Assembly (NCBI GenBank): GCA_009842645.1
Contig: VYFB01000068.1
Location: 10,904 to 74,903, forward strand
Direction: 5' to 3'
Length of the DNA stretch: 64,000 nucleotides
Origin: Nitrospira sp. SB0677_bin_15
Lineage (GTDB): Bacteria > Nitrospirota > Nitrospiria > Nitrospirales > UBA8639
In this document: in pieces, positions 3,383-50,743 of the stretch
Layout: each line of letters begins with the position of its first letter
Position numbering within the stretch: the stretch's first letter is position 1
Position numbers and translations under genes: made by a program
The notes under the pieces: generated by a model
The model's input: the letters and a program-made list of their open reading frames with translations, nothing else
The model's database searches: none
Told to the model about the DNA's origin: nothing

Positions 3383-3436
3383 CCAGCATGATCAAATGCA
3401 AGTCGTGAGTGAGCGTGGTCCGGCTGCCACTCCAAC

Positions 3437-4912
3437 TCAGGCCTCCAGCTTGGCCGCAATTTCTCTGAAACTGTTCAGCCCGGCTTCGACGTTTTCAATA
3501 ATGGCTTCTGCCAGATCGTCGGGTTCGGGCAGGTTGTCCAGATCGGTCAGACTTTTATCCTTGAGCCAGAAAATATCCAGGCTGGTTTTGTCGCGCACGG
3601 CGATTTCGTCGTGGGTGAATTTTCGCCACCGGCCTTCGGGGTGTTCTTCGGACCATGTTTCCTTGCGATCATGGCGGTTCTGAGGATTATAGCATCCGAT
3701 GAAATTCTTCAAGTCATCAAGCCGCATGGGTTTTTTCTTCAGGGTATGATGGATATTGGTACGGTAATCGTAGTACCACACTGCTTTCGTCCAGGGATTG
3801 GGGCTTGCGGGTTTGTTGTCAAAAAACAGCACGTTCGCCTTGACGCCCTGAGCGTAGAAGATACCGGTAGGTAAACGTAGAATGGTGTGCAAGTCGGTAT
3901 TTTGCAGGAGTTTCTTGCGAACCGTCTCTCCGGCTCCTCCCTCGAACAATACGTTATCGGGCACCACAACCGCGGCCTGGCCTGTGGTTTTCAGCATGGT
4001 GCGAATGTGTTGGACAAAGTTGAGTTGCTTATTGGACGTGGCGGCCCAAAAATCTTGCCGGTTATAGGTGAAATCTTCTTTTTCCAGTTCGCCTTCTTCA
4101 TTGGTGGCCGTCATGCTGCTTTTCTTCCCGAAGGGCGGATTAGCCAGCACATAGTCATAGCGGTCCCCGCTGTCGGCAATCAGGGAGTCTGTTGGTAACA
4201 CCGTAGACACACCGTCAATCTCACCGATGTTGTGCAGGAACATATTCATCAGACAAAGGCGGCGGGTATTGGCGACAATTTCATTGCCGTGAAAGGTTCG
4301 ATGTTTGAGGAAGGTTTTTTGTGCTTTGTCTAAGTTGTGATTTTCGACCAGAAAATCATAGCTGGCGAGAAAGAACCCGCCTGTCCCACAAGCAGGATCG
4401 GCAATGGTTTTACCTGGCTCCGGGCGTACGCAATCGACCATGGCTTTAATCAGAGCGCGGGGAGTAAAGTACTGCCCTGCCCCGCTCTTGGTATCCTCTG
4501 CGTTTTTCTCCAGGAGGCCTTCGTAAATATCGCCTTTGATATCCGCGCCCATCATAATCCAGGATTCTGTATCAATCATGTCGATCACCCGGAAGAGCAT
4601 TGCCGGATCCTGAATCTTGTTTTGGGCTTTGGTGAAGATTTGCCCGAGCAAACCTTTTTGCTTACTCAGTTCACGAAGTAGTTTGATATAAAATCCTTCT
4701 AGTTCCGCACCTTTCTTGGCTTTCAACGTCTGCCAATCGTATTCAGCGGGAATGCCGACATCGCGGTTATAGGGCGGCTTCCCGTATTCATTAGCCATCT
4801 TGAGGAAAATCAGATAGGTCAATTGTTCCAGATAATCGCCGTAACTCACGCCCGCATCCCGGAGAACGTTACAAAAGCTCCAGACTTTGGAGACAATGGA
4901 TTCGGTATTCAT
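3437..4912 (-). CDS. hsdM: Type I R-M DNA methyltransferase subunit
   Basis: 491 aa. N6-adenine MTase motifs DPACGTGGF and ANPPFG. ATGA overlap with the hsdS stop (4909-4912). Confidence 0.92.
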   Translation of the reverse strand: MNTESIVSKVWSFCNVLRDAGVSYGDYLEQLTYLIFLKMANEYGKPPYNRDVGIPAEYDWQTLKAKKGAELEGFYIKLLRELSKQKGLLGQIFTKAQNKIQDPAMLFRVIDMIDTESWIMMGADIKGDIYEGLLEKNAEDTKSGAGQYFTPRALIKAMVDCVRPEPGKTIADPACGTGGFFLASYDFLVENHNLDKAQKTFLKHRTFHGNEIVANTRRLCLMNMFLHNIGEIDGVSTVLPTDSLIADSGDRYDYVLANPPFGKKSSMTATNEEGELEKEDFTYNRQDFWAATSNKQLNFVQHIRTMLKTTGQAAVVVPDNVLFEGGAGETVRKKLLQNTDLHTILRLPTGIFYAQGVKANVLFFDNKPASPNPWTKAVWYYDYRTNIHHTLKKKPMRLDDLKNFIGCYNPQNRHDRKETWSEEHPEGRWRKFTHDEIAVRDKTSLDIFWLKDKSLTDLDNLPEPDDLAEAIIENVEAGLNSFREIAAKLEA

Positions 4913-6489
4913 ACGGCTACTTTCTTCAGTTTTCGGGCTTTCTGCTTCGGCTTAGCCTTCTCCGCCCTGATCCGCTCCAGCAATACACTTGCAGGCTCAT
5001 CATTGGGGTCTTGCGGCACGAGCCTGCCTTCAAAGGCTTTTTTCAAAAGGCTTTGGCGGAGGGCTTCAGCTTGTTTCAGGCCATTCGCAATATCCTGTTC
5101 GAGTCTTTCGGCAGCGGAAAGGCGGGATTCGATTTGGTCGACGATTTGATTTTGCTCTGCAATCGAAGACACCGGAAATTCTAAGTTTGCCAAGCCTTTC
5201 CCAGTTAGGTGTTTTATTGTCGTGCCGGTGAAAAATTTCGATAGATGCCCATTCGAGGAAGAAAAAAGCATAAAATAATATGCAAACTTATTGGCAATTG
5301 ATTTTGTTGGAAACCTCACCCGATGAAGAGCTTTCTGAATTCGCATGTCTGAATTGCTTTGCTTCCAAATCGCGCACCTACCAGGTTCACCTCCTTCACA
5401 AATAATTAAATCTCCCGACTGTAAACCGTATCTTTCCTTTTCTGCTTCTTCAAATTTCATATTCAGCAAATCAGACAAATCAAAGCTACCCCACCTAACG
5501 TTAATATTTCGAAGGTATGGAATAGGGGTTCCGACATTCTTGGATTTATCCAACATCTTGCCTAGACAAGATTCCAGAACCATATTATGGAACCGAATCC
5601 ACGCCCACCCATCAGGCAGTTTCGGCAACTCTGATAATTCTGCTTCTGTGAGCGGTGGGAGTTCCTTGGGCTTACCGGGTTTGGTGGGTTTCTTGTCCAC
5701 TTTGCCACTGGCCTCCCACGCTTTGACGGCTCGTTTCCAGTCGTCTTGTTGTTGCCGGTAGCGTTGCTCGCGCTCGGCCTTGATTTTCTCCAGCAGCGTT
5801 TCAGCAGACTCTAACTCATCGGCATGTTTCCTGCGCCATTCTTCGGTCAGCTTACCTTCAAAAGCGTTTTTCAGGATCGCCTGACGATAGACTATTAACT
5901 GCTCGCGGGCCATTTTGAAAGATTCAATGCCCTTGTCCAGTTCTGATAACAGTTCTTCGAGTTTGGAAACGATGCGCCGTTGTTCAGGGAGAGGGGGTAC
6001 TGGAAGAGGGATCTGTTTTAATTTGTTTGCATTTACGTTTGGTACAGCGATTCCGAGCTTCTTCTCCGATATTTCCCGCCAATAAAGAGGACTATCTAGA
6101 AAATACTTGAAGAACTTCTTGTCTATATATGGACGGAATCTGATGAGATAAGATGCAAATACAGAGTCCTCTGGTTTCTCTAGGAGATAGCTAAAACCTA
6201 CTGAACCGGCACGAGAAATAACGATGTCCCCTTCTTTGAGTAGATATTTCTCTGGGTCAGCGGGATTAGTTGAACAAAACGGGACCAAATTCCAGTCTAT
6301 CTTTCCTCTTGTAATATCTGTCGTTCTAAGAAGTTTCAGATCCCCCTTATCGCTCGCTTTTGTCGTATATCCATATTGCAGCTGTGAGCATAAGTTACTA
6401 ATTTTGCTTATGCACCACTCTTTTGGGAACTTATACGATTCTATTTTTGAATCATCATGCCGCAACGTTTGATTATCCTCACCCATCAT
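4909..6489 (-). CDS. hsdS: Type I R-M specificity subunit
   Basis: 526 aa. Two target-recognition halves, each ending in a conserved helix (LPEQRRIVSKLEELLSEL... / IAEQNQIVDQIESRLS...LLKKAFEGRL). Visibly AT-rich. ATGA overlap with the hsdR stop. Confidence 0.88.
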   Translation of the reverse strand: MMGEDNQTLRHDDSKIESYKFPKEWCISKISNLCSQLQYGYTTKASDKGDLKLLRTTDITRGKIDWNLVPFCSTNPADPEKYLLKEGDIVISRAGSVGFSYLLEKPEDSVFASYLIRFRPYIDKKFFKYFLDSPLYWREISEKKLGIAVPNVNANKLKQIPLPVPPLPEQRRIVSKLEELLSELDKGIESFKMAREQLIVYRQAILKNAFEGKLTEEWRRKHADELESAETLLEKIKAEREQRYRQQQDDWKRAVKAWEASGKVDKKPTKPGKPKELPPLTEAELSELPKLPDGWAWIRFHNMVLESCLGKMLDKSKNVGTPIPYLRNINVRWGSFDLSDLLNMKFEEAEKERYGLQSGDLIICEGGEPGRCAIWKQSNSDMRIQKALHRVRFPTKSIANKFAYYFMLFSSSNGHLSKFFTGTTIKHLTGKGLANLEFPVSSIAEQNQIVDQIESRLSAAERLEQDIANGLKQAEALRQSLLKKAFEGRLVPQDPNDEPASVLLERIRAEKAKPKQKARKLKKVAV

Positions 6490-9251
6490 GCCACCAATGC
6501 CTCATTCATCTCTTCAATCACCTGATCCATCTCATCACCGAATAACTGCGCCATGCGCCCCAAGCCACCTTGGGCGTTAAATGGGGCATAGTCGAGATCT
6601 TCACGTTCCAGATGAAAGGAATCGGCAATATGCCCTCGGATCATCCGCAGCCATTGCATCTGTTCTTCGTTGAATTTCGTGCCTGCACCGCTATGGCGCT
6701 TCATGATCCAGTTCTGGAAGTTACGGCGAACGGTTTCCGAGTACGGCGAAAGGGTTTCATCAATGCCACAGGCACGCCGGATCAGTGCCACGAGTGCTGT
6801 CAACTCACTCACCGGCTCTTGGCCTTTATAGTCGTCCAGTTGTTTATAAGCCTGCCAGACCCGTAGCGGTGCGAGGTTGGGTTTTTCCTGCTTCAGCCGT
6901 TTCAGAACATCCTTGATCATCTGATAGGTCAATTCTCGTCGGCGGTAGGGTTGGTTATAGAAGATTCGTAGCGCCGTGATTTCATCCTTGTGCGTTTCAA
7001 GGTAAGACGTGAAATCCTGTATGAGTGCCTTGGCTTTCTCCTTGGCCTCTTTGTCCCACCCGGCAAATTCCACCGTGTCGATGTTCACCGTATCAATAAT
7101 CTGGTCGTGGGTGCGGCGGATGTTCTCAAGCAACGTATTCAGTTCACCGGTAAAAACGCTTGTTGCCTCTTTCACCAATTCTTCCTTTGCTGTTCTTAGC
7201 TGTCCTCCCGAAGGTGGGTAGTTGGGAGGAAGGTTATTCACTTCACGGGCCCTTTTCTCCTGTATGTCCGGATTGATAGCATCGAGTAAGCCACGAACAA
7301 CCTGATTGATGGTCTTGCCCTCGGTCTTTTCTGCTATCTGTTTGTGTTCGTCGTCACTCAGTTGTTTGGAAAGCCGGGCCAGGCGGTTAGCCAGGGAAGA
7401 AATGGTTTCTTCATTCTGTGCCCCCATCATCACGGTATAGAGAAGGTCTTTCAGAGGAACGGTCGGTTTTTTCTCCAGTGGCCGGCTATCTGTTTTCAGG
7501 GATTTTGTCACACCAACGGCATCCACAATTACAAAGTGCGTCTTGGCACTGTGCGTTGAAGGTGTCACTTTTTTCAGATCGTCATACTCCAGGGTGCGGG
7601 TTCCCCGTCCTTTCATTTGCTCGAAGTAATTGCGGCTTTTCACGTCACGCATGAAGAGCAGACATTCCAGTGGTTTGACATCGGTCCCCGTCGCGATCAT
7701 GTCTACGGTTACTGCAATACGAGGATTGAAATCATTCCGAAATTGCGCCAAAACGGATTTTGGGTCCTCTTCGGTCTGATACGTCACTTTCTTGCAGAAT
7801 TCGTTGCCTTCCCCAAACTCCTCCCGAACGATCTGGATAATGTCGTCGGCATGGCTATTGGTTTTGGCAAAGGTCAAAGTTTTGGGGATCTCTTTCCGTC
7901 CTGGGAAAATTTCAGGAAGTTTATCCCGGAACGTCCGAATGATGTTTCGGATCTGGCTGGGATTGACCACGTCCTTATCCAAGTCCTTGGAGGAATACCC
8001 GATTTCTTCGTCTACCTCTTCCCATCGTTTTTTTCGGGTCAAGCGGTCCCGCATCTCCACATATTCCTTGGCCGTAATATTCGCGCCCTTTTTGGTAATC
8101 TCTGTTTCGATGGTATACACGTCGTATCCCACGTTCACGCCATCGGCCACAGCCTCTTCATGGGTGTATTCACTCACGACGTTCTCATTGAAAAACCCAA
8201 AGGTGCGTTTGTCCGGGGTTGCGGTCAAACCAATGAGAAACGTGTCGAAGTACTCCAATACTTGCTTCCAAAGGTTGTAGATCGACCGATGACATTCATC
8301 AATGATGACGGAATCAAAGAACTCAATAGGAATTTTCCCGTTATAAATTACGGGCAAGGGGGTTTTAGATAGAACACGTTCGGCGGGGTTTTCCAATTCA
8401 GCGGCTTCGTCCAAAGGCTCTCCTTTCAAGATAGAGTAAAGCCGCTGAATGGTGCTGATGCAAACTTGACTGTCTGAAGCTATATAACTCGATTTAAGGC
8501 GCTGCACGTTATACAGTTCGGTGAATTTCCGGTTGTCATCATTTGGCACATAAGCCATGAATTCCTGCTCAGCCTGTTCACCCAGATTTTTGGTATCTAC
8601 CAGAAAAAGGATTCGTTTCGCGTCGGCGAATTTGAGCAAGCGGTAGATGAACGTAATGGCCGTAAAAGTCTTCCCTGAGCCGGTAGCCATCTGGACCAAG
8701 GCGCGCGGGCGGTTCTCTTTGAATGATTTCTCCAGATTGTTGATAGCCCTGATCTGGCAGTCCCACAATCCTTCAGTATTGAGAATTGGAAGATCCAATA
8801 AGCGGGAACGTAGCGTTTTAGGCCGTGAAATCCATGCTTTGAATGTTTCAGGTCGGTGGAACGAAAATACCGGCTGGGAGCGTGGTTTCGGATCACGGTC
8901 GTCTCGAAACCGTGTCAGGATGCCTGTACTTTCATAGATGAAGGGAAGCGGTTCACTATCGGCAATCCATTTTAGTTTTGCTTTGGCGTAACCCTTAGCC
9001 TGTGTTTCTGCCCAGGTGAGGGCGTGCCCTTCTTCTTCTTTCTTGGCCTCAATAATTCCTACCGGTCGACGGTCCACAAACAGCACATAATCCGCTGGGC
9101 CAATATCCGTGAGATATTCTCTGACGGCCACCCCTGGCCCGGCATTAAAGTCGATGCGCTTTTTGTCTTGGACGACCCAGCCCGCAGCTTCCAACATCCT
9201 GTCGATGTTGTCACGAGCTTTTTGTTCCGGGGTTTGATTCACATGGTCCAT
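6486..9251 (-). CDS. hsdR: Type I restriction endonuclease/helicase subunit
   Basis: SF2 motifs QMATGSGKT and IIDECHRS. N-terminal nuclease-like region ADYVLF...IEAKK. Start moved to ATG 9249-9251 (MDHVNQ...) because the ORF-track start at 9296 overlaps the upstream gene. Confidence 0.9.
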   Translation of the reverse strand: MDHVNQTPEQKARDNIDRMLEAAGWVVQDKKRIDFNAGPGVAVREYLTDIGPADYVLFVDRRPVGIIEAKKEEEGHALTWAETQAKGYAKAKLKWIADSEPLPFIYESTGILTRFRDDRDPKPRSQPVFSFHRPETFKAWISRPKTLRSRLLDLPILNTEGLWDCQIRAINNLEKSFKENRPRALVQMATGSGKTFTAITFIYRLLKFADAKRILFLVDTKNLGEQAEQEFMAYVPNDDNRKFTELYNVQRLKSSYIASDSQVCISTIQRLYSILKGEPLDEAAELENPAERVLSKTPLPVIYNGKIPIEFFDSVIIDECHRSIYNLWKQVLEYFDTFLIGLTATPDKRTFGFFNENVVSEYTHEEAVADGVNVGYDVYTIETEITKKGANITAKEYVEMRDRLTRKKRWEEVDEEIGYSSKDLDKDVVNPSQIRNIIRTFRDKLPEIFPGRKEIPKTLTFAKTNSHADDIIQIVREEFGEGNEFCKKVTYQTEEDPKSVLAQFRNDFNPRIAVTVDMIATGTDVKPLECLLFMRDVKSRNYFEQMKGRGTRTLEYDDLKKVTPSTHSAKTHFVIVDAVGVTKSLKTDSRPLEKKPTVPLKDLLYTVMMGAQNEETISSLANRLARLSKQLSDDEHKQIAEKTEGKTINQVVRGLLDAINPDIQEKRAREVNNLPPNYPPSGGQLRTAKEELVKEATSVFTGELNTLLENIRRTHDQIIDTVNIDTVEFAGWDKEAKEKAKALIQDFTSYLETHKDEITALRIFYNQPYRRRELTYQMIKDVLKRLKQEKPNLAPLRVWQAYKQLDDYKGQEPVSELTALVALIRRACGIDETLSPYSETVRRNFQNWIMKRHSGAGTKFNEEQMQWLRMIRGHIADSFHLEREDLDYAPFNAQGGLGRMAQLFGDEMDQVIEEMNEALVA

Positions 9252-24738: not shown

Positions 24739-25308
24739 TCACAAGGCCAAATCAGCAAAAGCCACTATAGGTCCCAAAAATTTCTTAATGTTAATACCCT
24801 CGTACCGTTCCTCTTCTATCTTTCCTGGCCTGCTTTTCACGGGCTGTTTATCAAGTCTCTCGTTTATTCTCTCACCGATAAGAACGTAACTCATACTTGG
24901 CGTCGGAATCGTTTCTCTGCTTTCAATGCGGCAAACAGCGAGGAGATACCCCAGTAGCGGACGTGATCTCCGTAACTGTTCTTTAGGATGACGGTTTCCA
25001 CCCAGAGTTTTCTTCAATTCGATAAACATCGCATGATACGCTTCTCCATTTTAGTAGATCAGCAGATAATCGCAGATCTTTTTCCAATCTCCCGTTTTCA
25101 GAACTGACAAATGGCCAAATTTCCTGGTGAACTGAATCGTGGTGAGAGAGTCAGGAACACCCGAGACGACCACTATCATATCTGGCTGGTTCTCATTTTT
25201 CTCCCGAAGAGTGATGTCGTTGCTGGTATTTGGTGCTGTTGCCAGAACCTTTCCATCCAACACGTTCTCTATCTGGAAGTTCAGAGTCGCCTTACCTTTC
25301 TGCATCAT
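24739..25308 (-). pseudogene. PD-(D/E)xK-like partner of the ABC ATPase, interrupted by one in-frame TAA
   Basis: ORFs 25051-25308 and 24739-25029 are in the same frame, separated only by TAA (25051-25053). The joined reading ...ICDYLLIY*NGEAYHAMFIELKKTLGG... has a D...ExK pattern. It aligns with CCDYFVTNNDSVFLIEETQ and the shared QPDM of the 47978-48445 protein. ATGA overlap with the ATPase stop. Confidence 0.55.
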
Positions 25309-26879
25309 GACTCAGTACCCCTCACTCGAGATGCCAGTTCATTCGAAGCACGGTTGATTTTGTCGATTGTTGTGTCAAAAATCGGCATTTCTACGCCAAA
25401 TTTATCTACTGCACATTTGGTTAGGCGGTTCTCTTCCGCGACGTACCCTCGAATTGAATCTGGTTCAAGGAAATCGTCTTCCTTATACCCAAGCTTCCTC
25501 ACCACTTTGTCTTTACCCTCAAAGGAGTTGCTTAGCATGATGAGATTGTTGATTTCCTTCACGAGATAGTCACTGTGAGTTGTAATCAAAACTTTCAAGC
25601 CAGTCCGTACCAATCGAGCCAACAGTCGTGCCAACAGAATCTGGTTGGTTGTATCGAGATGACTCTCCGGTTCGTCGATAATGAGGAGGTGATTTTTCTG
25701 AGCGACGTGACGTAAGAAGAAATACAAGTCGGACAACCCACGTGCCGAAGAGGAAGCAAGATGAAGCGGTATGCTGAAGCTGTGTTCTTTGTTGCGTGTT
25801 GTGGATTTGAATTTGATATCGTCACCTGAGCTTTTATAGTAACCCCTTATCATATCCTTTATCTCGTCAAACAACTTGTGTTCATGAAGCTCACTTGTCT
25901 GCTTTTGGAAATCAGATAAATTTCTGGTGTAATCAATGTTGTCTTTGATGGGAAGAGCATAGCGGCTGGTGGTTTTGTCGATCAGGAAAAATGGAGAAAA
26001 GTGCTTTCTGTTTTTTTCAGCTCCCACCTTCTGTAGCAAATCCACCAATTGATTCTTAGTAAAGTCGAGTTCTTTGTAGAAGAGCGAGATGCCAAATCGT
26101 TCAGCAGACAGGACGAATGGAGCCCAAAAAAGCTCTGGAAAGAGAAACCGAAGATAAAGGCGTGGAATTAAGAATAATGCCTCGTCGTCAAAGGATGAGT
26201 TGTGTTGCTTCTCAGTGCGGTCTCTGGTTAGAACAATTTTTTCACCGTTGTATCGTATGGAAAACACGTCTCCCGATGGAAATTTTTCTTCAAGAGAATG
26301 ATTTTTGGGAAACTCACCAATCAACTCAACGTTGAGCGAGGCTCTTTTGAAATCATCTGGTGAAGAACTGAACACACCATAAAGAGCTGTTTTTGAAAAA
26401 CTTTGGGCCAAACTCTTAATCACTTTCTTTCGTTCTTGATCAAGATTCTCTCGATCTATGGTCCATGTGGCTTGGCCTTCCTTCATTGCTCGCCGGACCA
26501 ACATCCCTATTCTTTGCGGCAAGTTGCGCCATTTGTCGTGCAGCGGCTTCCCTTCTTTCCCGCTTCCCACATCCTCAACGTACTCGTCTTCGTCGGCGTA
26601 ATGCTCTCGATCGGGATACTCATCATCAGGGTCGGCCTCATTTGTGTCGTCATTCTGCGCGATGTCATCGTTGCCTATAAGAAAATGTCTAGCATTTGGC
26701 CACGAGTACCACATTTTCAAGAAGCCGTATAGCGTATATACTAGATACGTCTTGCCCGTATTGTTACAGCCAGCAACGATTGTGAGATCTCCCAATTCCA
26801 ATTCAGCGTGATTAACGGGACCAATATCTGTGAATAGAAATTTCACTGATGGAGACTGATGATTGTTGGTGGGCTCCAT
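25305..26879 (-). CDS. ABC-type (AAA_15/AAA_21-like) ATPase
   Basis: 524 aa. Walker A AGCNNTGKT, acidic insert NDDTNEADPDDEYPDREHYADEDEYVED, signature-like SSSARGL, Walker B LLIIDEPESHLD, H-loop ITTHSD. AT-rich. Confidence 0.75.
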   Translation of the reverse strand: MEPTNNHQSPSVKFLFTDIGPVNHAELELGDLTIVAGCNNTGKTYLVYTLYGFLKMWYSWPNARHFLIGNDDIAQNDDTNEADPDDEYPDREHYADEDEYVEDVGSGKEGKPLHDKWRNLPQRIGMLVRRAMKEGQATWTIDRENLDQERKKVIKSLAQSFSKTALYGVFSSSPDDFKRASLNVELIGEFPKNHSLEEKFPSGDVFSIRYNGEKIVLTRDRTEKQHNSSFDDEALFLIPRLYLRFLFPELFWAPFVLSAERFGISLFYKELDFTKNQLVDLLQKVGAEKNRKHFSPFFLIDKTTSRYALPIKDNIDYTRNLSDFQKQTSELHEHKLFDEIKDMIRGYYKSSGDDIKFKSTTRNKEHSFSIPLHLASSSARGLSDLYFFLRHVAQKNHLLIIDEPESHLDTTNQILLARLLARLVRTGLKVLITTHSDYLVKEINNLIMLSNSFEGKDKVVRKLGYKEDDFLEPDSIRGYVAEENRLTKCAVDKFGVEMPIFDTTIDKINRASNELASRVRGTES

Positions 26880-42415: not shown

Positions 42416-43504
42416 TCAGGGCCAGGGCCGCCCCAGCCACTCCGTTAAGATCGCTTTTTGAACGTGCAGGCGGTTTTCCGCCTGCCGAAGGACCACGGAC
42501 TGCGGGCCGTCCAGCACCGCCGCGGTAATTTCTTCACCCCGGTGAGCCGGAAGACAATGCAACACGATGGCCGAGGATTTGGCCCGGCTGAGGAGTCGTT
42601 CGTTTAATTGGTAGGGGGCTAGAATTTTCACCCGTTCGGCTTGTTCCTGCTCCTGTCCCATACTCGTCCAGACGTCCGTATAGAGCGCATCGGCGTTCTC
42701 CGCGGCCTCACCGGGGTCATGCACGATCTCGATGGTCGCGCCCGTGCGGCCGGCTTCTTCGCGGCTGCGTTCGACGATGCCGGGATCGGGTTGGTATTCC
42801 GGCGGGCATCCGATCACGACGTGCATCCCGACTTTCGCCCCGGCTTCGATCAATGAATTCGCCACGTTGTTCCCGTCCCCCACGTACGCGAGTTTGAGAC
42901 CGTGGAACACGTCTTCGGTGAAAGATTCTTTGACTTCCATGAGCGTGAACAGGTCGGCCAGGGCCTGACAGGGATGACACAGGTCCGTCAACCCGTTGAT
43001 GACCGGCACGGTGGCATGGCGGGCCCATTCCTCCAGCGTGGACTGCTCGAACGTGCGGATCACGAGCCCGTCCAGGTACCGGGACAGCACGAGGGCCGTA
43101 TCGCCGAGGCTTTCGCCCCGGCTGAGTTGGATGGTATCCGACGGCAGGAACAAGGCCTGCCCGCCCAATTGATGCATGCCCGCTTCAAAGGAAACCCGCG
43201 TGCGGGTCGAGGGTTTCTCGAACAGCAGGCCCAAGGTCAATCCCGAAAGCCATTGAGAAGCCGGACCGGACCGCGGGGTCGCCTTCAGTTCGCGCGCAAT
43301 GCGAAACAGGCGGAAGATCCGGCTGCCGGACAGGCCGGAGACAGCCAGTAAGTCTTTCGTGCCGCCTTGCGGCGTCGCCGGTGGGGCCGCCGAAACGCCG
43401 GGTTCTGAAAAGGATTGTCCCAAGAGTGTCATGTAGGGGACGGCCCCCATGCCGTCCATGATCCCAATTGAATTGCGTGTAACGTCATTTTTGCCCGTCT
43501 TCAT
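42416..43504 (-). CDS. argF: Ornithine carbamoyltransferase
   Basis: [34 protein letters not shown] 43502-43504 overlaps the argD stop. The N-terminal ~45 aa are an extension of uncertain reality. Confidence 0.85.
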
Positions 43505-44712
43505 GAATGCGAAAGCGACTCGAGTCGTTTCTGCAACACGCCCAACAATACGTCCAACAATCGATCGATCTCGTTATTGGTCACAATCAACGGCGGCACG
43601 AAGCGAAGCACGTTGCCCACGGTGCAGTTGATCAACAGGCGTCGTGCCAAACAGTCCCGAACGACCGGTTGCCCGTCGATGGATAACTCCATGCCTTGCA
43701 GGAGCCCAAGGCCGCGAACCGCGGTGACCACGGAAAGCCGGTTCTGCAACGATTGGAGTCCCTTGTGCAGGTAGGCCCCGGCAGCCCGGCAGCGTTCGAG
43801 CAGACGGTCATCCAGTAAGGCGTCAAACGTGGCCAGGGCGCCGGCACAGGCCAGGGGATTCCCGCCGAACGTGGACGCATGAGAACCCGGACCGAACGCT
43901 TGCGCCACGTCGTCGGTGGCGAGACAGGCGCCGATGGGAAGCCCGCCGCCCAAACCCTTGGCCAGGGTCATGATATCCGGCTGCACGTTGTAGTGTTCAT
44001 ACGCAAAGAGGGTGCCGGTTCTGCCCATGCCGGTCTGGACTTCATCGAAAATCAACAGCACGTCGCGGTTCCGGCAGAGCGCGTGGAGTTGTTTCAGAAA
44101 CGCTGCCTCGGCCACCACCACGCCGCCTTCGCCCTGTATGGGTTCAAGCATCACCGCGGCGGTGCGTTGATTCATTTGGCGTTCGATCGTGGACACGTCG
44201 TTGAAATCGGCGTATTTGAACCCTTGTGGGAGGGGAGCGAATCCCTGCTGCACTTTGGCCTGTCCCGTTGCCGTCAAGGTGGCCAGGGTTCGGCCGTGAA
44301 ACGAGTTGCGCATAGTGATGATCTCGTGCCGGTCCGGGCCGTATTTGTCAAAGGAATATTTGCGGGCGAGCTTGATGGCGGCTTCGTTGGCTTCGGCCCC
44401 GCTGTTGCAGAAGAACACCTTGTCGGCAAAGGAATGCGCGACCAATCGCTCCGCGAGCAGTACCTGTGGTTCGGAATAATACAGGTTCGACGTATGCAGA
44501 AGATGCCGGGCTTGTCGCTCGATAGCCGTGACCAGGTCAGGATGCCCGTGTCCCAGCGCATTGACCGCGATGCCTGCGACAAAATCCAGGTATTCCCGGT
44601 CCTCCGCGTCATAGACCTTGCACCCCTTGCCCCGCACCAGGCTGACGGGAAACCGGGCATACGTATTCATGATCGTCCGGGCGGAACGCTGTTGCAGATC
44701 TTCAGTCAGCAT
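43501..44712 (-). CDS. argD: Acetylornithine aminotransferase
   Basis: Class III aminotransferase: FCNSGAEANEAAIKLAR, DEVQTGMGRTG, LAKGLGGG. ATG at 44710-44712 is preferred over the track's GTG at 44751. Confidence 0.88.
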   Translation of the reverse strand: MLTEDLQQRSARTIMNTYARFPVSLVRGKGCKVYDAEDREYLDFVAGIAVNALGHGHPDLVTAIERQARHLLHTSNLYYSEPQVLLAERLVAHSFADKVFFCNSGAEANEAAIKLARKYSFDKYGPDRHEIITMRNSFHGRTLATLTATGQAKVQQGFAPLPQGFKYADFNDVSTIERQMNQRTAAVMLEPIQGEGGVVVAEAAFLKQLHALCRNRDVLLIFDEVQTGMGRTGTLFAYEHYNVQPDIMTLAKGLGGGLPIGACLATDDVAQAFGPGSHASTFGGNPLACAGALATFDALLDDRLLERCRAAGAYLHKGLQSLQNRLSVVTAVRGLGLLQGMELSIDGQPVVRDCLARRLLINCTVGNVLRFVPPLIVTNNEIDRLLDVLLGVLQKRLESLSHS

Positions 44713-44789
44713 AACGACGAAACCTCGCGTATAAACAGGCGAATCTAACACAGGGCTTCTCAGTGACGCAACGGAACGGCGTCGCTATT

Positions 44790-44837
44790 CCCCTCCTTTG
44801 TAAGGAGGGGCGAGGGGAGGTAGAGGTATTTGCATTC
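44790..44837. repeat. Family C repeat (copy 2, reverse orientation)
   Basis: cccctcctttgtaaggaggggcgaggggaggtagaggtatttgcattc. Confidence 0.55.
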
Positions 44838-45082
44838 GTCATTTACACTGTCTGAAAGTTTACGCTATAGTGCTTTTGTCTGCTTCATCAAAGCGACCCC
44901 TCTGTCGGGTCGCCTGCTCAATATAAGAGCCTCGCATCGTCTTCGTGGGTAGCTCCCACGTCAGACGATGTTGTATCCAAAAGGGTAAATACGCAGGGTC
45001 TCCAAGATGCTTTGGTGAGGCAGACACGGCCCGACCATGTGCGGATCGGACCGTTGGCCATCATTTTCACTACAAGGAGGGT

Positions 45083-46255
45083 ATGATGAAACATTTTCAT
45101 CTGGGGACGATCACGCTCAGTATCGGGCTTTTGCTCAGTGCCTGTGGGGGCGGAGGGGGAGGGTCTATGAATGGCATGATGGAGACAGGAGATACGCCAT
45201 CTGATCCTCAACCGCCACCTTCAGAAATGCAGACTGCGGAAATGCAGACTGCGTTCAGTGGGACACAGACGAGGAATGTCTCTGATCTCACGTACGCTTC
45301 AGCAACTCAGGTAGCAACTCAGTCGTTAAATGCCAGTCAGCAACCCAGTACCCCTATCTTTGGCAGCGTTGTCCAAGCCTTTACTTCTCCCAGGCTCTCC
45401 GATGTAACCGGGATTGAGACAACGTTTAATGGCAGCCGGTTCACCCTTCAAATCAATCGTCAGGATGGAAGTTCGACCACATTGGATACCGACCATGACG
45501 ACGTTTTGGACGTTGAGGAGATTTCGCCTTCTGAGAATCAAGTTACTAACAGAAACGCTGCGGAAGGCTATGTCTACAGGCTGAATGAATCTCCATTGAC
45601 GTTGACGGCTGCGGGAGTGTCTGTGGAGTGGGCCAGCACCGATTTTACCGATTATCTGTCCGGAGGCTATTGGGTGCACGTCGATATTAATGCGCAACAC
45701 GCTGAAATCGGGGCATTTATAGACGGGCCGGAATTTGAAAGGACCATACAGGTACCTGTCACCGGTACGGCCACGTATACCGGCAGGGCAGGCGGTGTGT
45801 ACGTTTCACGTTATGGAACAGATTTCCCCGGTGTTCCTTCGGGAACATTGGAACAAGGTGAGTACACGGGACGAGCCAGGCTGACGGCTGATTTTGAGTC
45901 CAGCCGGATCTCAGGACGGATTGACAATATCGGTCTGTACCACGTCAGTACTATGGAACCTGATGGAACAATAGATTATTATCCAAGTTTACAAAACACA
46001 GACTATGAGGGCATCCTCGGTGCCGCGCCTATAAACCAGACCGGAACTTTTGAAGGTCAAGGTGTGACGCTGACACATCCTCAAGTTCAAATCACCTCTT
46101 CGGGCTCATGGGCAGGCAGGTTTTCAATCAGTGATAACGCTGCGGGCAACCCGCGAGCCGTCGCGGGAACACATCGCGCGTCCTTCACAACTGCTGGAGA
46201 CAGTACTGGCATATTTGTAGGGGCATTCTACGGGGCCACTGAGCGGTTTGAATAA
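45083..46255 (+). CDS. Lipoprotein with TbpB-like beta-barrel C-terminal region
   Basis: ATG 45083 preceded by AAGGAGG. Lipobox LLLSACGGGGGGS. C-terminal pattern GTATYTGRAGGVY...ARLTADFESSRISGRI...GTFEG...GIFVGAFYG resembles transferrin-binding-protein-like lipoproteins. Confidence 0.5.
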   Translation: MMKHFHLGTITLSIGLLLSACGGGGGGSMNGMMETGDTPSDPQPPPSEMQTAEMQTAFSGTQTRNVSDLTYASATQVATQSLNASQQPSTPIFGSVVQAFTSPRLSDVTGIETTFNGSRFTLQINRQDGSSTTLDTDHDDVLDVEEISPSENQVTNRNAAEGYVYRLNESPLTLTAAGVSVEWASTDFTDYLSGGYWVHVDINAQHAEIGAFIDGPEFERTIQVPVTGTATYTGRAGGVYVSRYGTDFPGVPSGTLEQGEYTGRARLTADFESSRISGRIDNIGLYHVSTMEPDGTIDYYPSLQNTDYEGILGAAPINQTGTFEGQGVTLTHPQVQITSSGSWAGRFSISDNAAGNPRAVAGTHRASFTTAGDSTGIFVGAFYGATERFE

Positions 46256-46263
46256 TGAACTTG

Positions 46264-46434
46264 AGGAACCTCTGATTTAGTGCACTATCGGGCGCATGGC
46301 TGCGTTGTGTCCTCGCTCAACCCTCACTTATCTCTATGATAAGCTTCGGGTTTCGCTGCGGGACGTCTTGCCCTGCATCCCGCTATCACAATAAACCTGT
46401 CCTTGACGTTCTTAATCGAGGATCAGAGGTTCCT
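46264..46434. mobile_element. MITE-like element (copy 2) carrying a ~27-bp internal insertion
   Basis: Same left end aggaacctctgattta. The right end tcagaggttcct is displaced by cctgtccttgacgttcttaatcgagga (46396-46422), which contains the ttaatcgagga motif seen at 21330 and 47840. Confidence 0.65.
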
Positions 46435-46538
46435 TGATACCCTGGCTCGGACACACACCCGAGCCAGGGTATTTTTCATCGAAGGACAGGAGTAGCCGAT
46501 TGGGCAACTCCCCATTCTGTCAGCGGATGAGTGAACGG

Positions 46539-47711
46539 TTACGAAGACGCCGGAAGAAAGCTCCCCTTCGAAGCCATCTCGACAGCCTGTTCATAAGGGA
46601 GAACGGTAATGTTTCCGACCTTGAGCACCCGTTTGCCTCGATAGACCCCAAAGGCCTGCCGGATATCGCCTGACCGTAGCAGGACATTCAGCCCTTTATT
46701 GAATCGTTCTTTCCAGGTACAGGAAGATTTTATTTCAAAGCCGACCGCCTGCCTGCCTCTTTTCCAAATCAGATCCACTTCGTTGCCGGATTCCGTGCGC
46801 CAGTAAAAAAACTGCGCTCCGTGAGAGCGCCACGAATTGAGCGCCCTGAATTCATTGAGGATAAAGGTTTCAAACAGGACGCCTACATCAATCTCTGATG
46901 GCTTGTCCCGGTGCAAACCCGCCAAAGCCCGCTGCACCCCGGAATCAAAAAGATAGAATTTGGGATGGGCGACTTCCTTGATTTTGGCTTTGTTACGGTA
47001 GGCAGGTAAGTACCAGCCCAGCAGCGTGTCTTCGAGGATACTGAAATATCCCTGGACCGTAGACCGGGCGACGCCCACGTCCCTGGCGACGTTGGTGATG
47101 TTCAATAGCTGCCCGTTCATCAGGGCGGCGACGGAGAGAAACCGGTAGAAACTGTCGAGATTTCTGACGAGGGCTTCCTGCTGAATTTCCTCTTTCAGGT
47201 AAGTCTCGACGTACGCATCCAGAAATTCAATTTTCTCTTCGCTGGTGGCCGACGTGACGCTCAAGGGCAATTGCCCGTAGCGCAAGACGTCCGGCAACCT
47301 GAAGTCCTCGCCGATCTCAAGCATGCTCAACGGAAACATCCTCTTTGACAAGGCCCGGCCCGCCAGCATGTTGGCATGGGACCTCTTGAGTTTCCGGGCG
47401 CTCGAACCGGACAGGGCAAACCGATAGCCGTGCCGGCTCTCGAACAACAGGGCATGAACCTCATCCAATAATTCTGGAAGCTTTTGTATCTCGTCGATAA
47501 TGATCCAGGCCTTCTTGTTTCTCAGTGCCGCCACTTCCTGGGCAAGCAGGGACGGGTCTCGTTTGTATCGAAGATATTCATCGGATTTCAGCAGGTTGAT
47601 ACTCAAGGCCGCATGGCCGAGACGTTGATCCAGCCACACGGATTTCCCCGTCCCTCGCGGGCCGAAGAGAAAAAAACTTTTTTCAGGTAGCGTGAGTATG
47701 CGAGAGTACAT
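46539..47711 (-). CDS. AAA ATPase with DUF4143-type C-terminal region (second copy of this architecture)
   Basis: 390 aa. Walker A FGPRGTGKS, Walker B IIIDEIQ, C-terminal EVDLIW...FEIKS. Confidence 0.8.
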   Translation of the reverse strand: MYSRILTLPEKSFFLFGPRGTGKSVWLDQRLGHAALSINLLKSDEYLRYKRDPSLLAQEVAALRNKKAWIIIDEIQKLPELLDEVHALLFESRHGYRFALSGSSARKLKRSHANMLAGRALSKRMFPLSMLEIGEDFRLPDVLRYGQLPLSVTSATSEEKIEFLDAYVETYLKEEIQQEALVRNLDSFYRFLSVAALMNGQLLNITNVARDVGVARSTVQGYFSILEDTLLGWYLPAYRNKAKIKEVAHPKFYLFDSGVQRALAGLHRDKPSEIDVGVLFETFILNEFRALNSWRSHGAQFFYWRTESGNEVDLIWKRGRQAVGFEIKSSCTWKERFNKGLNVLLRSGDIRQAFGVYRGKRVLKVGNITVLPYEQAVEMASKGSFLPASS

Positions 47712-47800
47712 GTCGTCAATTCCGTTAAATTTACCGTAAAAATAACGGAATCACCGGCAATCGTCAATCACTCAGACCGTGCAACACATCAAATGGTCAT

Positions 47801-47930
47801 CTTCGATCCCCGATTACGAACGTCGGGGACAGGCTATTTTTAATCGAGGATCCAGCGTCTTAGCTTTTTCTTCTGTAGTGGTAGCTGCGCCCTCCCTGTT
47901 CAAAGACAGGGACATGCCTCATGGCGCATT
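47801..47930. repeat. Block of gatccccgat/cggggac, ttaatcgaggatcca and gtagctgcgc motifs
   Basis: Shares the three sub-motifs with the 21253-21590 composite. Confidence 0.5.
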
Positions 47931-47931
47931 T

Positions 47932-47971
47932 CTCCCTCTCCCCAAGGTGGGAGAGGGCCGGGGTGAGGGGG
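47932..47971. repeat. Family A hairpin repeat (copy A4, reverse orientation)
   Basis: ctccctctccccaaggtgggagagggccggggtgaggggg. Confidence 0.75.
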
Positions 47972-47977
47972 CATCGT

Positions 47978-48445
47978 TCAGGCATCCAACTGACTGTCTT
48001 TCAAGTTGTCAATGTATCGCCTGTCCTCCGGAGTGGATAGACCACTAACAACAAGCCAGAAACAATATTTCTTTTCGCCGACAAGGTTTTTTATCTCGGG
48101 AAATTTATTCATTAAGCGGGCTAGGACCAGTAAGGAACCATAAACCTTTAAACAATTTTCCGTTTTCACTTTTTCATCGACGAAATTTTTCTGGTCATTG
48201 TCGTTTAAGTACTGAACCTCCCTTTTCCATCTCTTTATGCTTTTTAGTAATTGTGTCTCCTCAATAAGAAAAACTGAATCGTTGTTTGTCACAAAATAGT
48301 CGCAGCAAGCACATGTGCCCAAACCCGCGTCTTTCCTCATATCAGGTTGCGGTGAGTTGCCATCCATGCGATAGGCGCGGTGGATTTCACTTAGAGGCAT
48401 ATTAGCGAGTTCGATGGGTTCCAGGAATTTTTCAAGGGCAATCAT
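47978..48445 (-). CDS. Small partner protein of ATPase 2 (PD-(D/E)xK-like core, homologous to 24739-25308)
   Basis: 155 aa. ATGA overlap with the ATPase C-terminal ORF. Shared blocks QPDM, CDYFV and FLIEE with the other locus. AT-rich. Confidence 0.5.
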   Translation of the reverse strand: MIALEKFLEPIELANMPLSEIHRAYRMDGNSPQPDMRKDAGLGTCACCDYFVTNNDSVFLIEETQLLKSIKRWKREVQYLNDNDQKNFVDEKVKTENCLKVYGSLLVLARLMNKFPEIKNLVGEKKYCFWLVVSGLSTPEDRRYIDNLKDSQLDA

Positions 48446-49735
48446 AGCCCCTCCAAGTACAGATTGGAGAAGGGCTTGGTTAATTCCTGCTTGATCGCGG
48501 CTATTCTGATTTCAAAATCTTCATCGACCTCACGGCCATTGACAGGAAATTGGTTGAGTTCAACGAGTTGCTCGTCATCAGGATTTTTCTTTACGTGAAC
48601 TTCCAGCCACTTGAGTATGTCAGCACTGTGCGTGGCAATGACGACGTTCATGCCTTGGCGTGACAACTCGAAAAGAGTTTCCGCCATGATGACTTGCCAG
48701 GCCGGATGCAGATGCGCCTCCGGCTCGTCAATAAAAAGAAACGACCCTTTATCCAGTATCTTCCTCTCGATCAGCAGTGCCAGGATGCCGAGATTGGCAA
48801 TTCCCATGGCCGTAACGGGTAGAGAGAAATTGCGGCCATTTTCATGGAACGACAAATTGCCGGTTTCGGAAATTGCCATCTTTCCGCCAATGACATCGCT
48901 GCTGGTCAACCGTTCATACACAGCAGGGAACGCCATGTCTCCGGTGTATTCAAACTTCAATGCCCTGGCGAGATCATAGAAATATCCTGGAATACCGCTG
49001 CAACTGTTTTATCCCCGAGATATAGGTGTCGAATCTGATTTCTCCATTTGAAAATTCAAAACTTCCAAAGTCTTCTACGCTGACTTTCGATGAGGTATTT
49101 CCGTCACCTCTGAGATCAGAAATTTTTGTTACTTGAAAGTTTTGAATCAGGTTCCCCCGAATTTTGTACTGCATCCCAGCAACAATGAATTTTTTTGCAT
49201 TTGCTTGGTTGAGGGTTTTTTGCAATTCGGCCAAGGAACGTTTCATGTTTTCTAAAGCTACCGTCTTCCACGACCTTTCCTGGAATGGCGGAGGTTTATC
49301 AACAAGGCTAGAGGATCCCTTTTGCTCGTCCTCTGATTCGAATGACCCCGAAATACTTGCGGTCATCTCCTGCATCTTTTCCGTTTGGCTGATTAGCTTG
49401 GGAATCATTTGATCTAACTCGTCAATTGAAGCTCCCCTCGTAATATCTTTCAGTCTGTAAAATTCGGGCAGCATGGCACCTATTAAACGTGCTTGTATCG
49501 AGCCATCTCTCACCCATGGCTGCATCATCACCAAAGCATTCTCGGCCGGACTTACCAAATGATCCATATACGTCTCGGCAGGGTTGGCATTCATGGCGTC
49601 AAAAAGCGAATACAGGAGCTTGGAGACAAAGCTCTTCCCTGTATTGTTCGGTCCCGCAAACACGGTGAACCTTCCAATACGGAGTTCTGAATCGGCGAGT
49701 TTTCCGATATTTTTAATCTCGACTTTGAAGTTCAT
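48442..49735 (-). pseudogene. ABC-type ATPase (paralogue of 25305-26879) split by a frameshift
   Basis: N-terminal ORF 48974-49735 (Walker A FAGPNNTGKS) and C-terminal ORF 48442-48960 (Walker B FLFIDEPEAHL, IATHSAD) are in different frames. The switch lies within ~48960-49010. Confidence 0.65.
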
Positions 49736-49885
49736 GGCCTGTCAATTTATGTGCGAAAGCTGTGTCATGCAGCATGGGACTACCTCGGCAAATTTTTGCC
49801 GACACCAAAATTCAGTGATACGCGACCAGGATGAAGCATAAACGCCCTGTTTCCTCCAGACAAGCCTAACCTGCCTTTCCCTAAG

Positions 49886-49960
49886 CTGTCATTTTTGTAT
49901 GTGTTCAATCATTCGTTGACACCCCTCACCCCAGCCCTCTCCCGCCGTGGGGAGAGGGGG
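49886..49960. repeat. Family B motif plus family A hairpin (copy A5)
   Basis: gctgtcatttttgtatgtgttcaatcattcgttgac + cccctcaccccagccctctcccgccgtggggagaggggg. Inverted relative to A4. Confidence 0.8.
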
Positions 49961-50050
49961 TTCGCCTTTTCTTTTCTGCTGCCCTCGCCATTTTCAGCCA
50001 TGTCTCCGCCCGGTGGCCTTCGGGAACAGTCGCATGGTATAACCTCAACC

Positions 50051-50743
50051 ATGAGAGCGTGCGATTCCTGCGAACAACAGAATCCTGATGATGCCCGGTT
50101 CTGCCTGCGTTGCGGCAAGGAGTTTCCTGCGGAAGCAGCGGCTGAGGCTGAGACCGGGACGGATCAGGAGGAGCAGTATTGGCGGACGTTGATCGGTCCC
50201 GGGAGATGTATCCAGTTCACGTTGACGAGCGGCTGGTCGTGGAAACCCGCGTGGGACTATTACCGGCGTGCGTTTCAACGGTTTCACACCGCACAAGGCC
50301 CCCGCTTTTCGCTCACGTGGAACTGGGCCCCGTTTTTGGTCGAACCCTTTCTCTGGTTTCTGTATCGCAAAATGTACCTGTTTGCGTTCGTGTACTTTAT
50401 CGGCCCCATCGTGTCCGTGTTTATCACCAGCGATATCACGGTGCCGATTGTGTGGTCGATCATCGCCAGCGCGAGCGCCAATTACGTGTATTACTGGCAC
50501 CTGAGAGACCTGTTGTTGAAGGCAAAAGCCCGAACCGCCCTGGACCACGCAACCCGCATGCGTCAGCTCATGGATGAAGGCGGCGTACAATCTTATGTGT
50601 TCTGGTTGGTGGCGGCGTCATTCTTATTGAAGATCGGCGTCTTCTTTGCCGTGTTCGGCGAAGCGCCGCTCGAGGACGGGTTTCCCTTGCCTGACGGGGA
50701 GCCCGGCGGGGAGGAGACGGAGGGCCGCAGGATGTTCCTGTGA
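50051..50743 (+). CDS. Zinc-ribbon + DUF2628-like membrane protein
   Basis: ATG 50051 (MRACDSCEQQNPDDARFCLRCG). The NWAPFLVEPFLWFLYRKMY motif is typical of DUF2628. Upstream ORF sequence is repeat-derived. Confidence 0.6.
   Translation: MRACDSCEQQNPDDARFCLRCGKEFPAEAAAEAETGTDQEEQYWRTLIGPGRCIQFTLTSGWSWKPAWDYYRRAFQRFHTAQGPRFSLTWNWAPFLVEPFLWFLYRKMYLFAFVYFIGPIVSVFITSDITVPIVWSIIASASANYVYYWHLRDLLLKAKARTALDHATRMRQLMDEGGVQSYVFWLVAASFLLKIGVFFAVFGEAPLEDGFPLPDGEPGGEETEGRRMFL

Follow-up and report, generated by a model that had tools for sequence, protein, structure and literature searches.

A probably recently inactivated two-gene ATPase cassette in a variable hotspot of a sponge-associated Nitrospirales genome

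Background

The closest described system to the gene pair considered here is HEC-02 (Hma-embedded candidate 2), in which an ATP-binding cassette (ABC) ATPase is combined with a NERD nuclease, both genes being needed for defence, and which is often embedded in other defence loci (bioRxiv 10.1101/2024.01.29.577857). Another system used for comparison is PD-T4-4 (Vassallo et al. 2022, PMC9519451), the effector of which has been classed as a PD-(D/E)xK nuclease (bioRxiv 10.1101/2025.07.10.664194). The pair described here lies at 47978-49735 of a 64,000-nucleotide stretch of Nitrospira sp. SB0677_bin_15 (contig VYFB01000068.1), hereafter the window, and consists of an ABC-type ATPase gene split into two frames and a small partner gene. 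Our analysis indicates that this module, which lies in a cassette-swapping hotspot in the genome of a sponge-associated member of the Nitrospirales, is probably a cassette that was inactivated recently and belongs to an unnamed two-gene family.

Results and Discussion

Two deletions in the ATPase and partner genes

The three open reading frames (ORFs) of the module are arranged head to tail on the minus strand. The N-terminal remnant of the ATPase (48974-49735, minus strand, 253 residues), whose start reads MNFKVEIKNIGK, contains the Walker A motif GPNNTGKS and the helical insert, and it comprises about 249 native residues followed by four out-of-frame residues and a TGA stop. The C-terminal frame (48442-49008, minus strand; ORF 48442-48960) carries FIDEPEAHL (Walker B/D-loop) and ATHS (H-loop); it opens directly after a TAA at about 49009, reading NSCSGIPGYFYDLARALKFEYTG, and lacks a credible start. 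Both pieces belong to Pfam AAA_15/AAA_21. The partner gene (47978-48445, minus strand) encodes 155 residues, and its ATG overlaps the TGA of the ATPase gene as ATGA; a Pfam search of its product gave no match. The GC content of the module is 45.1%, compared with 54.8% in the window and 55.6% in the genome (2.55 Mb). These features, i.e., the split ATPase with its three motifs, the C-terminal frame opening right after a TAA, the ATGA-coupled partner and the AT-richness, had been described in a first-pass annotation and were all borne out by the ORFs, motifs and composition. The module is a disabled ATPase and small-partner pair of foreign composition.

As a reference for base-level alignment, we used a contig of another metagenome (L001), which is 97-98% identical in the flanks and contains an intact module encoding a 474-residue ATPase and a 186-residue partner. 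The ATPase read through its interruption had more than 1,200 homologues, the best 120 of which were 444-505 residues long where intact, and the partner had 110 homologues, mostly of 184-188 residues. The lengths of intact homologues, 455-490 residues for the ATPase and 184-188 for the partner, support the presence of lesions in both window genes. At 48987-48998 (minus strand), 116 nucleotides present in L001 (6754-6869) are gone, and the junction shows ATTCCAG-type microhomologies. The deletion takes 38 codons plus 2 nucleotides (about 39 residues, ...SVIYLESPVYWKLKNALE...REPLT), which explains the +1 change of frame. Thus, the frame change noted in the first-pass annotation is real, but its cause is a deletion; a simple one-nucleotide frameshift was ruled out by the alignments with homologues and with L001. 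The lost segment includes the invariant V-x-YLESP-x-YWK strand (VIYLESPVYWK) and the helix after it. Nine columns of the deleted stretch were invariant among 65 homologues, and in an AlphaFold2 model of the ATPase (mean predicted local distance difference test score, pLDDT, 81) it forms the core strand 256-260 and the helix 263-275.

The partner gene was found to be damaged as well. It had been reported as an ATGA-coupled gene of 155 residues, which is correct, but this product is truncated, a lesion that had escaped the first reading. Compared with L001 (approximately 7866-8122), about 255 nucleotides are missing at 47996-47999 (minus strand), with a GAC microhomology at the junction, and these included the last 36 residues of the 186-residue protein, the stop codon and about 140 nucleotides of intergenic DNA. 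The remaining protein has 150 native residues followed by five new ones and ends in ...NLKD-SQLDA, and the missing tail corresponds to the last strand and helix of the partner model (pLDDT 90). Neither the ATPase nor the partner product can be functional as encoded, and the two deletions are the cause of the inactivation. They are independent of each other, and each took place between short matching sequences.

As a proxy for sequencing reads, the exact 253- and 155-residue products were looked up in other assemblies. They were present in contigs of other samples and assemblies, at least five in number: the NCBI assemblies GCA_009841415.1, GCA_009836145.1 and GCA_009843795.1, the ENA assemblies of SAMN12347671, SAMN12347675 and SAMN12347680 and the Logan assemblies of SRR9841436 and SRR9841446. 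Across 47700-50100, such contigs (L021-L028) were 99.75-100% identical to the window without gaps. Since the same gap-free lesions occur in independent assemblies, an artefact is excluded, and the sampled population appears to be fixed for both lesions. One lesion-bearing assembly is separated from the window by 6 single-nucleotide polymorphisms and represents a different strain; therefore, the lesions are older than some of the strain divergence.

The module is 13% divergent from that of L001. The synonymous divergence (dS) from L001 was 0.27-0.57 in the module and 0.007-0.12 in the flanking genes, i.e., several-fold to about 40-fold higher in the module, whereas the ratio of nonsynonymous to synonymous divergence (dN/dS) between the window module and intact copies (0.13-0.34) was as low as that between pairs of intact copies (0.09-0.63). 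Relaxed selection as the source of the 13% divergence was ruled out by these values. The high dS together with the low dN/dS indicates that recombination has placed different functional alleles in the window and in L001, and the similarity of the dN/dS values to those of intact pairs indicates that the window copy was inactivated recently. The fastest-evolving part of the module is the N-terminal half of the ATPase with the helical insert (dN/dS 0.34-0.63), which would fit a sensor surface.

Relation to described defence systems

The intact ATPase (about 470 residues, Pfam AAA_15/AAA_21) has the Walker A, Walker B, H-loop and variable insert of an ABC-type ATPase, the helical insert occupying residues 52-204 of the model. 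Its best PADLOC matches were HEC-02A, PD-T4-4_A, NsnB and AriA. The match to HEC-02A, the best of these (8e-31, 105.6 bits), was partial, aligning residues 193-433 with positions 61-297 of the 338-position model. HEC-02 resembles the present pair in having two genes, for an ABC ATPase and a small partner, and HEC-02B is a nuclease of the PD-(D/E)xK superfamily (NERD). However, HEC-02A has only about 340 residues, whereas the ATPase examined here has about 470 with a helical insert of about 150, and the window partner and its close homologues match neither HEC-02B nor Pfam NERD. Among 53 distant members of the partner family, weak matches to HEC-02B were seen in three (E-values 1.5e-4 to 1e-2) and no match to Pfam NERD was seen.

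A Foldseek search with the ATPase model returned the retron Eco8 effector, PtuA and OLD (probability 1.0, E-values of about 1e-5, low template modelling scores of 0.3-0.4). Septu, the retron PtuA/PtuB systems and OLD thus provide the best fold matches of the ATPase and would share with the present pair the logic of an ABC ATPase with a nuclease effector. They differ from it in that its effector is neither HNH nor TOPRIM and in that the sequence likeness is limited to about 80 residues around Walker B.

The comparison with PD-T4-4 involves a second gene pair in the window (24739-26879, minus strand, hereafter module 1), composed of an intact 524-residue PD-T4-4_A-like ATPase gene and an interrupted partner gene of 189 codons. 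The module 1 ATPase matched PADLOC PD-T4-4_A with 352 bits (1e-105) over positions 61-455 of 460. In contrast, the family of the 47978-49735 module (module 2) gave no full-length match: the ATPase pieces of the window matched only in part, and an intact homologue (P0002) scored 84-86 bits (about 1e-24), the best stretch of about 100-120 residues lying in the C-terminal half. PD-T4-4 and module 2 share an AAA_15/AAA_21 ABC ATPase followed by a stop/start-coupled gene, which in PD-T4-4 encodes a nuclease of about 190 residues, and a CDY[FL]...IE core in the partners. They differ in the partner motif, which reads E-L-K in the PD-T4-4-like family and E-E-T in the module 2 partner. PD-T4-4_B and the other PADLOC models gave nothing at E ≤0.1 against the window partner and three intact homologues.

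The module at 47978-49735 had been regarded as a second copy of the pair at 24739-26879, and this was not upheld. The two ATPases are 33% identical over only about 105 residues around Walker B, and the partners gave no tblastn match to each other; duplication of module 1 was ruled out by tblastn and the PADLOC scores. When the two partner families were compared with hhalign, a profile of close homologues gave a probability of 29% and a broader, more diverse profile gave 65% (E 6e-5), the common core being a beta-hairpin, CDY[FL] and h-h-I-E. Modules 1 and 2 are different families that share a single architecture, that of the ABC-ATPase/nuclease theme. In module 1, an in-frame stop at 25051-25053 breaks the partner gene; this stop was also seen in two other assemblies, whereas homologues of the partner are uninterrupted (185-192 residues). 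The earlier statement that two disabled copies occur within 64 kb is therefore right in that both pairs are disabled and similar in architecture, but they are not copies of each other. The inactivation of the presumed nuclease partner in both modules is compatible with selection against self-damage, although two cases are not separable from neutral decay; counter-selection of a costly or toxic system, as suggested earlier, and neutral decay are both plausible.

Properties of the partner and possible function

Intact partners (184-188 residues) contain the conserved motifs CCDY and LIEET, and D27, D48, Y49, E61, K99 and Y101 are invariant or nearly so. The topology of the model and the link to the PD-T4-4-like partners suggest that the protein may be a divergent PD-(D/E)xK nuclease in which the lysine (K99) would be supplied by a long helix. 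The intact system would then consist of a defence-type ABC ATPase of about 470 residues, similar to OLD and PtuA, and a translationally coupled partner of about 186 residues. By analogy with PD-T4-4, HEC-02 and Septu, the ATPase would probably use its variable insert to sense infection and would regulate the partner nuclease.

Several observations weigh against this interpretation. The partner had no significant match in Pfam, PADLOC, NCBIfam, PDB sequences, PDB folds or BFVD folds; Foldseek against PDB and BFVD returned nothing below an E-value of 0.03, with restriction endonucleases only at noise level, and a PDB sequence search with the partner profile yielded only a spurious match to MafB. 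The position of E-x-K reads E-E-T, so that nuclease activity of the partner can only be inferred, and the profile-profile link to the PD-(D/E)xK family is weak (the 29-65% given above). With regard to the inactivation itself, contigs L022-L025 and L027 end at 48886-49097, within about 100 nucleotides of the ATPase junction, and this could reflect a co-occurring second allele that shares short identical stretches; an intact allele may also persist in a minority of the population.

It is quite possible, if somewhat short of probable, that the pair is a distinct unnamed anti-phage system, in which the ATPase is joined by a PD-(D/E)xK variant with a helix-supplied lysine that current libraries do not recognise, and which circulates horizontally among unrelated phyla of sponge symbionts (Nitrospirales, Latescibacterota, Acidobacteriota, Poriferihabitaceae, Verrucomicrobiota, Gammaproteobacteria and Dehalococcoidia). 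If so, it would be a habitat-specific piece of the pan-immune system. If the pair does protect against phage, it would also represent a new effector variant of the ABC-ATPase/nuclease theme and a case in which immunity genes are shared within a habitat. The locus itself reflects ordinary turnover of defence genes, a foreign cassette having been disabled by two small deletions while it is intact in a relative. Its value is as a pointer to a strictly conserved pair whose partner folds confidently and has no library match.

Distribution of the intact family

Strict sequence patterns for the pair were used to scan approximately 186,000 species genomes, a procedure which finds close relatives only. 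We detected 36 loci, in all of which the ATPase gene was immediately upstream of the partner gene, mostly with a 4-nucleotide overlap. No third conserved gene was present among these loci. In 36 of 36, the module was AT-richer than its flanks (median GC contents of 44% and 56%). The record titles named Nitrospirales, Latescibacterota, Terriglobia, Poriferihabitaceae, Porifericomitaceae and Porisulfidus, as well as Arenicellales, Limisphaerales, Pseudomonadales, Dehalococcoidia and Thermodesulfobacteriota. The pair was found almost only in genomes of sponge symbionts of many phyla; several host names in the record titles point to sponge metagenomes, as do the accession series. Because the patterns recover only close relatives, the sponge enrichment is a preliminary observation. 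Of the 76 nearest-neighbor ORFs, seven matched models of Type III methylases, five or six those of Type III restriction enzymes, five those of other AAA_15/21 ATPases and four AlbA_2.

In the taxonomic family to which the source organism belongs, the partner was found, always at full length, in 10 of 37 other species of the same genus, and it was absent from all 77 species examined in the other genera. Clustering at 50% identity gives 275 representatives of the partner family among 1.84 billion proteins. A further observation concerned relative G003 (L014, 5331-5894), in which the C-terminal half of the ATPase is about 90% identical to that of the window and L001 at the protein level, whereas the partner is 58% identical. 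This suggests that partner variants may be swapped between otherwise similar ATPase genes within the genus.

A cassette-swapping hotspot between argD and a zinc-ribbon gene

Relatives were searched with the 6-kb region, and ten loci were aligned. The backbone is conserved up to 44783 (argD and ornithine transcarbamylase genes) and again from 50006. The variable hotspot between these points (44784-50005) is bordered by argD (43501-44751) on one side and by a zinc-ribbon/DUF2628 gene (50051-50743) on the other, and in the window it contains a lipoprotein gene, a 130-bp hairpin repeat, an AAA_14/DUF4143 gene and the decayed module. In G010, G017 and G018 the site is empty, with 30-37 nucleotides between the backbone genes. 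The AAA_14/DUF4143 gene occurs alone in G002 and with about 800 nucleotides of other sequence in G015; G007 has only an intact module (494 and 186 residues), and G003 has an AAA_14 gene and an intact module (471 and 187 residues). About 1.5 kb of other sequence occupies the site in G004 and G008, and L001 has the content of the window plus an AlbA_2 gene. The site is a cassette-swapping hotspot and not a repeat-bounded element.

The AAA_14/DUF4143 ATPase gene (46539-47711), which matched the PADLOC candidate PDC-S01 (2.5e-62), behaves as an independent cassette of the hotspot, being alone in G002 and absent in G007. In L001, a gene for a 396-residue protein with SLFN/AlbA_2 and HATPase_c_4 domains (4720-5910) is located directly upstream of the intact module. 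The window, G007 and G003 lack this gene, and since it accompanied the module at only about 4-6 of the 36 related loci, it was ruled out as a third member of the system. The first island gene (44945-46255) had a weak NCBIfam match to Slam-dependent surface lipoproteins (7.9e-6, below the cut-off); of the loci compared, only the window and L001 have this gene.

In the leader 5' of the ATPase gene (49736-49866, minus strand), one block is kept in G007, G003 and L001. About 85 nucleotides between this block and the ATG are not found in G007 and G003, and the last 22 or so before the ATG also align to L001. An alignment of the leader with the AlbA_2 gene, made in search of AlbA_2 remnants, was noisy. 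Rfam, promoter and terminator scans of the region gave nothing useful.

Alternative explanations

Two alternatives concern the split of the ATPase gene. It might be a sequencing or assembly error, the gene being intact in the organism, and it is true that the genome is a metagenome-type assembly of 156 contigs and that contigs of other assemblies break nearby. We consider this highly improbable: at least five further assemblies, made from different samples, show the same gap-free configuration, the lesion is a 116-nucleotide loss of conserved codons and not a homopolymer slip, and the partner gene has a second, independent deletion. The split might also be a regulated state, i.e., a programmed +1 frameshift or a reversible phase-variable switch, the latter having been proposed in the first-pass annotation; the frames do differ by +1, and the fact that both window modules are off could suggest regulated silencing. 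With about 39 conserved codons gone, however, frameshifting could not restore the protein. There is neither a repeat nor a simple-sequence tract at either junction, the 116- and 255-nucleotide deletions recur identically in at least five other assemblies, all of which show one state, and no intact version of the window allele occurred among 5.8 billion clustered proteins, in which the closest intact ATPase was 86% identical. The lesions argue strongly against reversible switching, and a regulated state is scarcely credible.

Recent inactivation of a hotspot cassette can also be compared with the view that the 2-kb module forms a separate mobile element (of a composite type or like a miniature inverted-repeat transposable element, MITE) ending in two inverted repeats. 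Some relatives have the module and others lack it, and inverted copies of one repeat do surround the AT-rich segment, as had been noted earlier. The left copy (47932-47969, plus strand) is a generic palindromic element, CCCTCTCCC..GGGAGAGGG..GGGGTGAGGG, found at the same place in L001 and G003; the right copy (49923-49960, minus strand) is inverted relative to it and located within a variable spacer, and L001, G007 and G003 have no copy at the corresponding place. This 38-nucleotide hairpin-forming element has an internal 9-bp stem, occurs in both orientations and is often clustered. The 2.55-Mb genome contains 328 copies forming 224 adjacent pairs, of which 131 are within 2.5 kb and 60 of these are inverted. 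Given these numbers and the relatives without the right repeat, the bracketing is no more than expected by chance and has no special meaning, and the idea of mobility through these repeats fails, as L001, G007 and G003 have an intact module without the right copy. Nor do relatives lack the segment exactly between the repeats: the missing stretches end at 44783/50006 or 47781/50003, the one in G002 (47782-50002) including both repeats and extra sequence and those in G010, G017 and G018 spanning 44784-50005. The island has no transposase or integrase. Thus, the flanking repeats are ordinary genome-wide palindromic elements, their role as element ends was ruled out by the genome-wide counts and the relatives, and a mobile element of this kind is very unlikely. 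They resemble elements of the repetitive extragenic palindromic (REP) and bacterial interspersed mosaic element (BIME) type in being short palindromes of high copy number in both orientations, but the sequence family is lineage-specific. The remaining alternative accepts the inactivated cassette and questions its function, which might be that of a toxin-antitoxin-like addiction pair or of a DNA-repair or housekeeping ATPase pair riding in variable regions. The partner has no recognised domain and AAA_21 is annotated as 'putative AbiEii toxin', which would agree with such a role. However, the pair is patchily distributed (10 of 37 other species in the genus, none of 77 in the other genera of the family), the module has a foreign GC content in all 36 hosts, Type III restriction-modification genes and other defence ATPases are often adjacent, and the closest relatives in sequence and fold are all defence ATPases. 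A non-defence function is accordingly unlikely.

Other repeats in the hotspot

A second type of palindromic repeat (CCCCTCCTTTGTAAGGAGGGGCGAGGGGAGG) is present at 44790-44830, at the left edge of the hotspot, and in G002 (L011, approximately 3420-3460) it directly abuts the right backbone gene. Cassette borders are marked by repeats, which may act as substrates for recombination. In addition, an element of about 130 bp (46265-46396) forms a long imperfect hairpin (-39 to -45 kcal/mol) and is flanked by GGAACCTCTGAT / ATCAGAGGTTCC at approximately 46264-46275 and 46425-46436. It had 217 BLAST matches in the genome, about 94 of them near full length, and looks like a MITE-type repeat. Relatives in the genus have many copies each, with 82-98% identity.

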